Origin: Candidatus Marinacidobacterales bacterium
GTDB taxonomy: Bacteria; Acidobacteriota; Vicinamibacteria; Marinacidobacterales; DATDRI01
Direction of reading: 5' to 3'
Length of the DNA: 64,000 bases
Assembly: GCA_965226495.1 (NCBI GenBank)
Contig: OZ245365.1
Location: forward strand, 2,976,001-3,040,000
Part shown: positions 1,877-6,613 of the stretch, in pieces
Layout of the letters: each line of letters starts with the position of its first letter
Numbering within the stretch: the stretch's first letter is position 1
Notes under the pieces: generated by a model
Seen by the model: only the letters and a program-made list of their open reading frames with translations
Database searches by the model: none
What the model was told of the DNA's origin: nothing
Position numbers and translations under genes: made by a program

Positions 1877-4051
1877 TTGGTCGAGCTCAATCACCACGAA
1901 CACTACGTAAGGGCCAAGATCCTCTACTACGGTCCTGCTGCTGGCGGGAAGACCACCAGTCTTCAAGTGCTCCACCGCCGCGCGCATCGAAACCAGAAGA
2001 TGGAGCTGATCTCGGTCAACACCGCGCAGGATCGCACCATTCTCTTTGACCTCCTCCCGCTGCGGACAATCGCCTTTCGCAGCTACGAGCTTCGGTTCCA
2101 AGTGATCGCCGTTCCGGGACAGCGTCTCTACGCCGCAACGCGCAAAATGCTTCTCAAGGGAGCCGACACCATCGTCTTTGTCGCAAACTCTGCCGCCGAC
2201 CGCTTTCAGGAAAATCTACACAGCTTGAAGGAAATGACCGAGAACCTCCTGAGCCATGGCATCGATCCATCTGGCATGCCGGTTGTCTTTCAATACAACA
2301 AAAGGGATCTTCCGGATACGACGGAGATCAAAACCTTGGATCGTGCCCTCAACGCGCGTAGCTCGGAGAGTTTCCCTTCCATTGCTATCGAAGAAGAGGG
2401 GGTATTGGAAACGTTCGCCGCCGCACTTCGTCTCACGATGACCGAGCTCTCGACTCGATACAAGATTGGCGAGGACGTCCGCGGCCCGCGCGCCGCGCGC
2501 GAATGGGCCGAACGCGCCATGAAAGAGACCTTCGACGTGGCGAAGAAAGCCCCGCCGACTCCAAAAGAAGAGGCCCCGCCGAGCCCCGAACCTCCGCCCG
2601 CGACCGTGCTCCGCGTGCGAACGCCATCCGCGCCCCGGACGAAACTCGGGTCGCCCCCGGCGGCACCAGCATCCGCAGACTCACCGGCGCCGGCGCCCTC
2701 CGCGTCAGCCGAAGTGCAGGATCCCTTGGGAGCCCAGGCACTCGTCGAGAGCTATGCCGAGGCGACGGCCGGACTCACCGACCACTTGAGTCGACTGACA
2801 GAGGAGAAGGACGAGGCGAACCGAAGGCTCGAGGAGCTGTACGCCGTGTCTGACATAGGGCGCAGCCTGCTTCATGCCTCGCGCGACCGAGCCAAAGCGC
2901 TGTTGGAAGGCGTGGTGAAGAAGATGTCGAACATCTTCCGCACTTCGCAGGCTTCGCTCTCCCTGTTGCGACCGGACGGTGAGTTGGAGGTCATCGTTCA
3001 CCAAGGCATCGAAGATGATCCAGTTGTCTACGGAACGTCGTCCGAAGGTAACTCACTCGGACCGTCGCTGCTGGAAGCGGGAAAGCTTCGCCTCGAGCTG
3101 CGCGGAGCGGCCGGGCCTCTGGGGGAAGCGATCGAGCGAGTCGGCAAGCAATGCGCTGCGGTCTTGGTGCTTCCGCTCCAAACGCCTGCGCGCCCCATCG
3201 GGTTGCTGGTTTTCTATCTCCCCGAGGAAGCGTCCATCCCTAGCGAGTTCGAAATGGAGCACCTCGAACGCCTGGCACTCGCATTGACCTTGACGCTCGA
3301 AGTCGCCTCCGAGGCGGTTTCCACGGAGCGCCTGGAAGGAATGACCAAAGCGGCGCTCGCCGGACAGCTTGCGCAGCGCGTTTTCCGTTCCGCAGACGGC
3401 CCCATCGATCGAATCGTTTCCTCTCTTTATCGACTTCGTTCGCGCGCCGGCTCGCCGGCATGGCTCACCGACGGCCTGAGCCAGATGGAGGACACGATCT
3501 TCCAGCTCCAATTCGTGAACTCTCTTTATCGACTTCGTTTGAGTCGGGGCCGATGGAGACACGATCTTCCAGCATTCGGAGACGACGAGTTTCCTCCCGC
3601 CGACCGCGTTTCCTTGGAGGAGCTTCTCGGCGAAATCGAGGCGGACTTTCGGGTGCCGTTGGCAGAGGCTGGAGTCACCCTTCAAATCGAGAACAAGGCC
3701 AGTGGTGCTTTCCTGAGGGCAGAACCCGTCCTACTCCGTGCCCTCATCGGGGGCTTGATAGAAAACGCTCGCTGGAGCCTCGCCGGGATTACATCGGGAT
3801 GCGTGATACGCGTGATCGTGCAACCGACCGAACAAGGCATCCGGCTCGCCATTTTCCATAACGCCGGCGCGTTGGTTTCTCGAAGAGCTCCCGCCCAAGC
3901 CCTGTCGTGGCCGTTCGAACGGCGTCTCTCCGAGGTAAACCTGAAGCTCGTCGAGACCCTGGTCTCCTACTTTCAAGGCGAGTTGACGACGGAGAACCGG
4001 GAGAAGGTCGGTTCGATGACGACGCTGATCTTACAAACCGATCCGAGCTAG
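1877..4051 (+). CDS. MglA-like small GTPase fused to a Pro-rich linker, GAF domain and degenerate histidine-kinase-like C-terminus
   Basis: KILYYGPAAGGKTT (G1), DRTILFDLL, VPGQ and QYNKRD (G4) match MglA. GAF-like segment LVLPLQTPARPIGLL; HATPase N-box-like LIENA. Confidence 0.8.
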   Translation: MVELNHHEHYVRAKILYYGPAAGGKTTSLQVLHRRAHRNQKMELISVNTAQDRTILFDLLPLRTIAFRSYELRFQVIAVPGQRLYAATRKMLLKGADTIVFVANSAADRFQENLHSLKEMTENLLSHGIDPSGMPVVFQYNKRDLPDTTEIKTLDRALNARSSESFPSIAIEEEGVLETFAAALRLTMTELSTRYKIGEDVRGPRAAREWAERAMKETFDVAKKAPPTPKEEAPPSPEPPPATVLRVRTPSAPRTKLGSPPAAPASADSPAPAPSASAEVQDPLGAQALVESYAEATAGLTDHLSRLTEEKDEANRRLEELYAVSDIGRSLLHASRDRAKALLEGVVKKMSNIFRTSQASLSLLRPDGELEVIVHQGIEDDPVVYGTSSEGNSLGPSLLEAGKLRLELRGAAGPLGEAIERVGKQCAAVLVLPLQTPARPIGLLVFYLPEEASIPSEFEMEHLERLALALTLTLEVASEAVSTERLEGMTKAALAGQLAQRVFRSADGPIDRIVSSLYRLRSRAGSPAWLTDGLSQMEDTIFQLQFVNSLYRLRLSRGRWRHDLPAFGDDEFPPADRVSLEELLGEIEADFRVPLAEAGVTLQIENKASGAFLRAEPVLLRALIGGLIENARWSLAGITSGCVIRVIVQPTEQGIRLAIFHNAGALVSRRAPAQALSWPFERRLSEVNLKLVETLVSYFQGELTTENREKVGSMTTLILQTDPS

Positions 4052-4052
4052 G

Positions 4053-5222
4053 CTAGCCGTCCGTGGAGGAAGTCGCGCGCGCCACCGCGTTTCGGCCCCG
4101 ATTCCACCGCAATGCCTGTACCAAGTGATTCCATCCCCACGCTATGACCTGGTGCAACCGCCGGAGATAGAACCAGCGAGTGGCGCCGCCCGGAAACACT
4201 TCACGCATGACGTTGTGACGAGGAAAAGTGAACTCGTAGAGGTAGCCTAGCTTTCCAAGAAAAGACGGGATCGAAAAAGCCACCAAGAGCTCTCCGGTTG
4301 CCTCTGCGGCCCGCCTAGCTACGACCGCATCCACGAACTTGCATTCCATTCGGTTCAAGCGCGGTAGAGAAACCCACACTCCCGGAGGAATCTTCACCGC
4401 GAGAAGTCGCTCCATAGCAGAGACTGCATAGGCGACGGGGCGCTGCGTCCGGGTTTTTTCGGCTTGGAGCAAGAGCTCTTCCCAGTCGAGTCGCCGCGAT
4501 ACCAGCGCTAGATCAATCAACCAGATGAGTCGGGAGAACGAGTGCTTCTGCGCGTGTACCGCGAGATGCAAAAATTGATGAGCGGGTGACAGAGTCAGTA
4601 GGCTGTTGTCGCCTGGATCCAAGGCCACCGCCTTCGCCCAGACTGCCTCGGCATCGAACTGGAACGCTAACGCTCGCCTGCGGATCCGAGACGCGTTGAG
4701 GAGGTCGGTATGGAGGTCGAACATCACCGGCCCCTTCGTGAAAAGCGTCCCCGATGAGCCCGGGGAACGGAAGCCCCGCTCAAAGAGCATATCCCGCACT
4801 CGGGGAAGGTCTGTCTCGTCCACCAGGAGATCCAGGTCGCTCAAAGGGCGTAACCCCAATTGGCCTCCGTAGGCGGTCGTGGTCAGCGCGCCACCTTTGA
4901 GAAGAACGACCCGAAGCCCCTCCCTCTGGAGAGCGGTACGAAGGGTAAGCAATTCTGCGAAAAGGCTTCCGTTGGAGACAAAAATGCCGTGGAGTGCCTT
5001 CGAGAAGGGCTCCAAGGGAAGCTTCAAATGGTGGGTTCTTGAGAGCTGCTCGAGCTGAAGCGCCAGCACGCCGCCCATACCTTCTTGCCCCGCCAACTCG
5101 AGCAGACCCGCCCAGTCCAAGGAGGGACCGATACATTCGAGGGCCTCGTCCTTCTCGGCATTGCCGAGGAAGAGTCGCCCCGCGGCGAGGAGCACGTCTC
5201 GTTCTGGGCTTCTAGCAACCAC
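4053..5222 (-). CDS. Nucleotidyltransferase family protein (NTP_transf_5-like)
   Basis: LLKGGAL...RPLSDLDLLV...DLHTDL...HLAVHAQKH...WLIDL. GTG 5222 overlaps the stop of the upstream gene; the ORF track extends to 5324. Confidence 0.85.
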   Translation of the reverse strand: MVARSPERDVLLAAGRLFLGNAEKDEALECIGPSLDWAGLLELAGQEGMGGVLALQLEQLSRTHHLKLPLEPFSKALHGIFVSNGSLFAELLTLRTALQREGLRVVLLKGGALTTTAYGGQLGLRPLSDLDLLVDETDLPRVRDMLFERGFRSPGSSGTLFTKGPVMFDLHTDLLNASRIRRRALAFQFDAEAVWAKAVALDPGDNSLLTLSPAHQFLHLAVHAQKHSFSRLIWLIDLALVSRRLDWEELLLQAEKTRTQRPVAYAVSAMERLLAVKIPPGVWVSLPRLNRMECKFVDAVVARRAAEATGELLVAFSIPSFLGKLGYLYEFTFPRHNVMREVFPGGATRWFYLRRLHQVIAWGWNHLVQALRWNRGRNAVARATSSTDG

Positions 5223-5751
5223 AATTATTCTGGGCCGAGGCCGTCCCCACGCACACCCCATTGCAGCACAGCTTGGAGCCGCATTGGCTTCCGGGATTAC
5301 CGTTGTGGCAAGGGGCACAGTCACCCGCGGCGTTGCAGTCTCCCGTAGGCACGCAGCTCATCCCGTGCGCCGGAGTCGGTGCAACGATGGAGCTCACGAC
5401 CGGCAGCATCACGGAGGCGGCGAGGCCGACTTTCTTCAACCGACGAATGAAGTCGCGCCGGGAGTACCCCTCGATGGGCGCTTTCCCTTCCAGCAAACCG
5501 ACGCGCGCGAGGCGGCCCAAGGCATAGTTCACGACCTCTCGGTCGGCAGGTTCGTCGAGCTTATCGGCGAGGATGCGCGCCAACTGAGAGATAGTCGCCT
5601 TCCCATTACTGTGGCGCCATACGATCGCGGCGGCACGGTTGAGGCGATGAGCTCGATGATTCCTCAAGTCATAGACCAGAACTTCGTCGAGGAGGTTTTG
5701 CACCGCCAAATCCTTTTTCCTCCGACGAGGTTTATCGTGTTCCCTGCTCAT
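5212..5751 (-). CDS. PqqD/RRE domain fused to a twin-arginine-like leader and Cys-rich C-terminal peptide (putative RiPP precursor)
   Basis: DEVLVYD...AHRLNRAAAIVW...LARVGLL is PqqD-like. It is followed by SRRDFI, LPVVSSIVAPTPAHG, and a 49-aa tail with 10 Cys. Confidence 0.8.
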   Translation of the reverse strand: MSREHDKPRRRKKDLAVQNLLDEVLVYDLRNHRAHRLNRAAAIVWRHSNGKATISQLARILADKLDEPADREVVNYALGRLARVGLLEGKAPIEGYSRRDFIRRLKKVGLAASVMLPVVSSIVAPTPAHGMSCVPTGDCNAAGDCAPCHNGNPGSQCGSKLCCNGVCVGTASAQNNCGC

Positions 5752-5776
5752 GCTCGCTCCTTGCTGGACTAGTGCC

Positions 5777-6613
5777 CTACGCAGCGTTATCGAGCTCGGC
5801 CAGCATTTTCTCTAGCACTTCATCCACTTCACCCCGAGCTCCGATCAAGACCGGCGCGCGACCCACCGCGCGTTTCAACGTCTCCAGCGCGCGTTGGGGT
5901 TCTAAGCGGGCCGAGGCCGTGTTGGCCAACAACGCGAGAGCCGCTTGACCGGGAGAAAGCGTATGCGGACTCCAATTTGCCCCCGGCTTGTACTCGCTCA
6001 GAATGACTAACCCGACCGGTAGCGGTGGCCCCCCTGGGGTCACGCCCAGTTCCTCGACTAGCTCAGAGATGGAACGCCTCTCTCCTTCGAGTGTCTCGGG
6101 AGGGTGGGGAAAAGCATGGACACGGCCGCGTGAATCGAAGACCGCGTACTCGTCGGAGTAATACGTTCCCCCCGCCCTTACCAATCCGGCGACCAAAGTG
6201 CTCTTGCCGCTAAAGGTCTTGCCCGGCAAAACGATAGCCCGGCCGCGCCATCCGACCACCCCCGCGTGGATGAACACTCGCGTCTCGGAGGTTTCCGCGA
6301 CGAAGAGCCGCATGTCCGAGACGAGAACCTGAAGTAAATCGTCGAGGTCCATCGTTCTCGAGATTCGTTGCGTATTGGCATAGAGAAGGTTGTACCAGCG
6401 GATCCGACTGCTGGAGCCGGTTGGTTGGTTCGGTCCAACCCGGAGCGAATACAATCGATCCACGACGCGGGACTTCGCCGGTTTCCAACCGGGGGGGAAC
6501 AACGACTCGAGACGATCAAGTACTTCCACTTGGTTGACGCGAACTCCTACGCGAGTGCCGTAGGCTCGAAACGCAATCCCCGCTTCCCAACCGAGCCGAT
6601 CGAGCTCTTTCAT
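5777..6613 (-). CDS. HPr kinase-related P-loop kinase
   Basis: FIHAGVV...GKTFSGKSTL (Walker A)...YYSDE. Likely start is ATG 6613 (MKELDRLGW); the ORF track starts at 6739. Confidence 0.8.
   Translation of the reverse strand: MKELDRLGWEAGIAFRAYGTRVGVRVNQVEVLDRLESLFPPGWKPAKSRVVDRLYSLRVGPNQPTGSSSRIRWYNLLYANTQRISRTMDLDDLLQVLVSDMRLFVAETSETRVFIHAGVVGWRGRAIVLPGKTFSGKSTLVAGLVRAGGTYYSDEYAVFDSRGRVHAFPHPPETLEGERRSISELVEELGVTPGGPPLPVGLVILSEYKPGANWSPHTLSPGQAALALLANTASARLEPQRALETLKRAVGRAPVLIGARGEVDEVLEKMLAELDNAA

Follow-up and report, generated by a model that had tools for sequence, protein, structure and literature searches.

Three genes, all on the minus strand, real and conserved, lie between positions 4053 and 6613 of the window, as we call the whole 64,000-nucleotide stretch analyzed here, from a Candidatus Marinacidobacterales bacterium. 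An HprK-related kinase of 278 aa (5777..6613, minus strand) is followed, after a spacer of 25 nt with AAGGAG inside, by a 179-aa precursor composed of an RRE domain, a putative twin-arginine (Tat) signal and a Cys-rich core (5212..5751, minus strand); the stop of the precursor overlaps by 11 nt the start of an NTP_transf_5 nucleotidyltransferase-fold enzyme (NTase; 4053..5222, minus strand; 389 aa, DxD at residues 129/131). We placed the NTase start at the GTG at 5222, the same start as in the relative L012; an alternative GTG at 5324 would give 423 aa. The initial annotation of this DNA had described three co-oriented, tightly packed genes with no lasso cyclase, B2 protease or radical SAM gene adjacent, and both points hold. 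A domain scan of the flanking genes identified a GTPase/GAF protein, a cysteine dioxygenase and an SDR, but nothing of the cyclase, B2 protease or radical SAM kind. Genome-wide, the nearest Asn_synthase match is ~850 kb from the cassette, and the single, marginal Transglut_core3 match is not near it. No promoter-like site above chance was detected at the cassette. Contigs from four public runs contain the cassette DNA unchanged; the source of this DNA may be among those runs. The neighboring GTPase/GAF gene (window 1877-4051, plus strand) fuses a small-GTPase-like domain, a Pro-rich linker, a GAF domain and a histidine-kinase-like end; it is convergent to the cassette, with synteny preserved in L012 and L013.

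The three genes also occur together in other genomes, as the initial annotation had anticipated. Precursor and kinase are found in the identical 8 of 41 related genomes, and kinase and NTase are adjacent in all eight relative loci fetched (the NTase is in two pieces in two of them, and the precursor divergent in one). In a phylum sample of 301 genomes, setting aside 26 with RRE-only matches, we found a leader-bearing precursor in 24 genomes, the kinase in 26, and both in 23. Metagenome neighborhoods were anchored on the kinase: among 80 such loci, 28 have enough flank, and these contain the precursor in 17 cases, the NTase in 26 and both in 15, the precursor thus not being adjacent in 11. Several genomes have dispersed precursor copies and a single kinase, which could serve them all. 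Only 5 of 60 neighboring NTases exceed 40% identity to that of the cassette.

Precursor architecture and a probable internal twin-arginine signal

The N-terminal part of the precursor (about aa 8-90; 5482..5730, minus strand) is an RRE/PqqD domain. It matches Pfam PF05402 above the cut-off (24.8 versus 23.4 bits), as do all 150 aligned homologs at E<=0.05, and its model has the winged-helix RRE fold, with lasso B1 RREs as nearest structures (6jx3, the best match: Z 9.3, rmsd 2.3, 83 aligned; 5v1u: Z 8.9). Foldseek returned zero matches at E<=0.001. After the residues PTPAHG comes a 49-aa tail containing 10 Cys and 6 Ser/Thr, the predicted mature core (5215..5361, minus strand; five possible disulfides), so that the fusion of a PqqD/RRE domain to a Cys-rich tail stands as originally described. 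This core has a calculated reduced monoisotopic mass of 4677.75 Da, which five disulfides would lower by about 10 Da. The HMM checks proposed at that time succeeded for PqqD and for NTP_transf_5 (147.8 bits, DxD intact) and failed for the kinase, which matches no Pfam family.

A profile built from 30 precursor homologs identified 1,781 representatives (50% identity clusters) at E<=1e-30, and 5,888 at E<=1e-10, RRE-only proteins probably among them. Source names are mainly Acidobacteriota, and also Armatimonadota and Deltaproteobacteria. We aligned 150 sequences (the window protein, 146 of the best 150 matches and three earlier homologs), all of which share one layout: RRE, RR near residue 100, hydrophobic stretch, P-x-V-x-S-I-x-A-P, AxA-type end and variable tail; motif counts in this set are partly circular, because the profile that selected it already contained the RR and leader motifs. 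Mean identity is 0.47 for the RRE, 0.49 for the leader and 0.33 for the tail, the last propped up by the cysteines. Tail length ranges from 26 to 102 aa, and the Cys number is even in 142 of the 150. In eight close homologs the leader is 82-97% identical, versus 47-67% for the tail. The expected pattern, a conserved RRE and leader with a hypervariable Cys-rich tail, is therefore seen, and the idea of a cyclase-free precursor carrying its RRE in cis is supported. Three homologs have atypical tails (P0131, a 190-aa domain; P0160, a Cys-free Lys/Gly/Asp tail; P0065, a 2-Cys tail), and the RRE-signal module therefore also carries other cargo. Weak conotoxin-type Pfam matches of a few tails were treated as cysteine-spacing effects. 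Short stand-alone precursor forms gave four matches, possibly contig fragments; a leader-plus-tail match at L085:7532-7693, a short open frame without RRE, is a possible stand-alone precursor. A precursor query of genome contigs gave one chance match.

Between RRE and tail lies a segment (aa 97-130; 5362..5463, minus strand) with S-R-R-D-F-I, a hydrophobic region and an AxA-type end. The Tat consensus is Z-R-R-X-hydrophobic-hydrophobic (PMC13673990), and the precursor has this motif followed by a hydrophobic region. The RR pair is present in 150/150 aligned homologs and a preceding S/T in 129/150, and the two hydrophobic consensus positions are filled in 148/150 and 149/150; the canonical Tat Phe occurs in just 10/150, and TIGR01409 is matched by 25/150 members at E<=0.05. 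At the AxA-type end, position -1 is Ala in 137/150 and position -3 is Ala or Val in 121/150; the window precursor reads AHG here, i.e., Gly at -1. A leader-only profile has N-terminal RR signals among its weak next-best matches in the genome, which contains a TatC gene. We infer from these sequences that the leader is a Tat-type export signal with a putative signal-peptidase site. The segment had been correctly singled out as a conserved leader, but the Tat signal and AxA site within it had been missed. Such a signal would explain why no dedicated protease or exporter accompanies the cassette, and none recurs among the neighbors scanned: the housekeeping Tat system and signal peptidase I could stand in for both.

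Among the five Tat substrate classes that a review of the pathway sets out, none is presented with a cleaved internal signal; its only described case of a folded domain ahead of a Tat signal, FecR (class V), is uncleaved (PMC13673990). The precursor resembles FecR in having a folded cytoplasmic domain before an internal twin-arginine signal, and resembles the REMP chaperone systems, where the signal serves a private chaperone as a maturation platform (PMC13673990). It differs from both in the conserved AxA site of its signal and in that its chaperone, the RRE, is fused in cis. By analogy to FecR, the precursor might depend on Tat yet stay uncleaved in the membrane, its RRE on the cytoplasmic side and its Cys-rich domain anchored on the outer face. 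Although the class V precedent and the Gly at -1 of the window copy speak for this reading, the conservation of -1 and -3 across the family and the hydrophobic stretch, which is short and interrupted by two near-invariant prolines, make it unlikely. We thus favor a cleaved signal.

Predicted kinase docking, candidate phosphosite and chemistry

The P-x-V-x-S-I-x-A-P motif (aa 117-125; 5377..5403, minus strand) is predicted to bind the RRE in cis as a strand and to contribute to the kinase interface. Its residues P117, S121 and P125 are conserved in 148, 135 and 148 of the 150 homologs. A model of the precursor without its tail (pLDDT 84.7) has a strand at 119-122, which in this model can only pair with RRE strands. 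Compared with the NisB-leader complex 4wd9 (Z 7.7, rmsd 3.8, 97 aligned), the match reaches model residue 126 and chain residue 1020. We take the NisB protein to end near residue 993; if that end holds, the precursor segment therefore lies at the leader-binding place. Mean-field DCA on 252 sequences was noisy and gave no single register; the pairs Y76-L116 and L20-A124 are in the top 10 of 7,750.

The kinase has an invariant His116, Walker A (130-137) and YYSDE (D154/E155) in 30 aligned homologs. The best NCBIfam matches of kinase and precursor are the two uncharacterised HPr-rel-A families, TIGR04352 (kinase) and TIGR04353 (PqqD family chaperone), although both miss the cut-offs (kinase, E 5e-14 but 52 versus 200 bits; precursor, 17.1 versus 35 bits), and the 74 positions of TIGR04353 cover only the RRE. 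The kinase has no sequence relative in the PDB (best E 0.42). For the kinase-precursor pair the predicted complex reached a score of 0.77, whereas none of three controls exceeded 0.00; the score mark was reached by 116/157 solved pairs versus 2/215 mismatched pairs, a calibration only roughly valid for the alignments used. Prediction runs have at least 64% of contacts in common, with a partner pLDDT of at least 78. The interface involves RRE residues E23, Y27, A34 and N38, leader residues 120 and 122-129, and kinase P-loop residue 132, with kinase helices 220-251 lying over the RRE sheet and these leader residues; the RR arginines are outside it. The model supports binding of the precursor through RRE sheet and leader, and together with the co-occurrence it strengthens the earlier proposal that this kinase is the likely enzyme of the precursor. 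A second, intact-looking kinase of the family, without adjoining precursor or NTase, is encoded elsewhere (G000:C1:3168367-3169191, minus strand); the genome holding the window yielded only one leader-bearing precursor.

The same predictions bear on whether the RR segment is a recognition leader and nothing more, the product staying internal or leaving by another route and its cysteines binding metal or being otherwise modified. The segment is more conserved than ordinary signals, and its P-x-V-x-S-I-x-x-P motif occurs in 0/30 of a rough set of ordinary RR-signal proteins from the same genome; RRE and kinase are both predicted to occupy it, and a binding role for the arginines is conceivable. 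The arginines are however not part of the predicted kinase interface, the even Cys counts fit disulfides, and the scanned neighbors include no conserved exporter or leader protease, so we give this reading a small chance of being right and keep to a leader that is also an export signal.

The likely phosphorylation site is Ser132, at +2 of the predicted core (5356..5358, minus strand), by analogy with the LPP pathway. The LPP precursor motif is YxxPxVLxHQxIxFETxxS, whose final Ser is polyphosphorylated by LppK and whose residues right after the Pro extend the RRE sheet (PMC13381572). In the window precursor, P117 and S132 are likewise 15 residues apart. Across the 248 sequences scored out of 260, Pro+15 is S/T in 225, versus 3-28 at offsets 11-14 and 16, and S/T is found at +2 in 7/30 of the ordinary RR-signal proteins. 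At this position 80/248 precursors have Thr, which LppK did not accept (PMC13381572). S132 is absent from the confident interface residues, and the conserved Ser121 is a rival site.

The initial annotation expected the phosphate to be nucleotidylated, with a +NMP shift, which is probably wrong. PsmN, the sole lasso-type NTase with a reported product, is required for the addition of one or two hexoses to the phosphate (+162/+324 Da; PMC6993621, PMC8498205), and LppN gave no activity and no mass shift in a heterologous host (PMC13381572). A sugar is therefore a likelier addition than NMP, though this is the weakest step of our scheme; no PDB sequence relative of the NTase was found. Stable nucleotidylation after phosphorylation would suit the NTase fold with its intact DxD, and the authors of PsmN allow that their enzyme may merely make a donor for another enzyme (PMC6993621). 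Set against a sole reported product that is mono- or di-hexosylated, and against the silence of LppN, such an end product appears very improbable.

Relation to known systems and a proposed mechanism

The closest known system to the cassette is LPP (LppA/K/B/S/D/N), a cyclase-free kinase/RRE/NTase pathway (Popov et al. 2026; PMC13381572). The initial annotation, which knew of no characterised example, is thus out of date on this point, although LPP has neither RRE fusion nor Tat signal. Both systems have an HprK-like kinase, an RRE and an NTP transferase without cyclase, a conserved leader with a variable core, and a PxV motif whose Pro precedes by 15 residues a Ser close to the start of the core; both are frequent in polysaccharide or capsule loci, and the signal-peptidase-type cleavage of LPP has a putative counterpart here. 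The cassette would work like LPP yet falls outside it on three tested features. The RRE is discrete in LPP, whereas RRE, leader and core form one ORF here; LPP has an SpI-like leader peptidase and an MsbA-like exporter, whereas the cassette has neither; and while PxV and Ser of the LPP motif match, Tyr, HQ and FET do not. The cassette also differs in its internal Tat signal, its even-Cys core and the frequent Thr in place of Ser, and it occurs in Acidobacteriota and other phyla, LPP in Bacillota. Phosphorylated and phosphoglycosylated lasso peptides (paeninodin, pseudomycoidin) share with it the pair of kinase and NTP transferase (PMC8498205, PMC6993621) and the RRE type noted above, but those systems have a macrolactam synthetase and a B2 protease, both absent from the cassette, and a C-terminal phospho-Ser, whereas the candidate Ser is near the core N-terminus. 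Searches of a literature that covered few subscription papers returned no account of an RRE joined to a Tat-signal precursor, though the LPP supplements could list such genes.

We propose that the cassette is probably an LPP-like modification pathway with a self-chaperoning precursor that uses the general Tat pathway. Its genes, motifs, conservation and co-occurrence are observed; chemistry and transport are predicted or inferred. In a first step, the N-terminal RRE would bind its own P-x-V-x-S-I-x-A-P as an extra beta strand. The kinase would then dock on the RRE sheet and strand, as in the model, and would phosphorylate Ser132, possibly several times, if LPP is a valid guide to the site. The NTase-fold enzyme may next add a sugar or sugar-phosphate to the phosphate, rather than a stable NMP, as PsmN suggests. 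Finally, Tat would export the core by means of the twin-arginine signal, leaving the RRE in the cytoplasm; signal peptidase I would cut after residue 130, and five disulfides would form. What results would be a phospho(glyco)peptide of the cell envelope, rich in disulfides and variable, that is probably connected with surface polysaccharide biology. A difficulty in this model is that the signal, held in its own RRE, must be released. If the mechanism is true, it describes a RiPP pathway without dedicated protease or exporter, in which one segment is both RRE-bound leader and Tat signal. A large uncharacterised kinase family would also gain a substrate with a defined residue, Ser132; the cassette would provide a compact three-gene test of the NTP_transf_5 function left open for PsmN and LppN, and make the precursor family, with its 1,781 clusters, a pool of diverse bacterial disulfide-rich mini-proteins.

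Polysaccharide genes, C25 peptidases and other neighbors

Among 45 precursor loci of at least 10 kb, a polysaccharide gene (WecA-like, Wzc, O-antigen ligase, GT1 or Polysacc_synt_2) is present in 23, a PorU-like Peptidase_C25 in 15 and either in 34, versus 26/396 tiles of the window's genome; many of these loci are kin, and those of related genomes are not independent. Seven loci with RRE-only, leader-only or partial matches were left out of this count. The window cassette itself has neither type of neighbor. We rejected the C25 peptidase as a dedicated part of the cassette: it is a frequent neighbor only, because it is spread far beyond (124/301 genomes, and 18/24 precursor genomes). The neighbor scan, covering cluster representatives and 106/145 remaining candidates, returned one Asn_synthase fragment, one MauE-thioredoxin fusion and two radical SAM genes, both adjoining RRE-only matches.

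An exported protein of ~220 aa occurs at L111:5818-6465, L114:5836-6564, L149:4817-5560 and 10 more loci. It has a Gly-rich linker, a C-terminal hydrophobic segment and a short Ser/Pro-rich end, and the members scanned match no Pfam or NCBIfam family. This protein is found in 9/9 of the loci of at least 10 kb that have kinase and NTase without the precursor, which raises the question of whether the two enzymes act mainly on another envelope substrate, such as a polysaccharide linker or surface proteins, the RRE fusion being an adaptor or one client. Other NTP_transf_5 genes of the window's genome, lying in polysaccharide loci, would agree with this. The nine loci are however probably kin, because one gene order is common to them. 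Moreover, kinase and precursor are almost always together at the genome level, and the dispersed precursor copies of several genomes could be served by one kinase. We accordingly give another main substrate a slim chance, and take the precursor to be the likelier main substrate.

A wider reading, possible but in our judgment doubtful, is that the family forms an undescribed and very large group of self-chaperoned RiPP precursors and a sixth type of Tat substrate, with a cytoplasmic RRE and a cleaved internal signal. The RRE would hide the signal until kinase and NTase have built a phospho-sugar, coupling modification to export, and the peptides would then be linked to the surface by polysaccharide, O-antigen-ligase or PorU-like C25 machinery.

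In the window's genome, PorU-like Peptidase_C25 proteins are found at nine loci (G000:C1:597863-667781, 222763-247406 and 5490400-5498253), with open frames of up to 6,188 aa and six of them within 70 kb. The region G000:C1:5486063-5506034 is a second RRE system in a polysaccharide locus: it contains NTP_transf_5, Wzc, a 254-aa exported protein and a giant C25 protein, along with a stand-alone PqqD, a probable radical SAM gene and an O-antigen ligase. At one locus only, a MauE-AhpC/TSA fusion (L095:7678-9264) lies within a doubled kinase cassette and fits disulfide formation. A protein of 400-480 aa with His-x-His, which we take to be cupin-like, adjoins the cassette in five loci (L051:5014-6294, L067:6978-8417, L095:11424-12833, L105:3003-4214 and L146:5325-6191) and is possibly a further tailoring enzyme.
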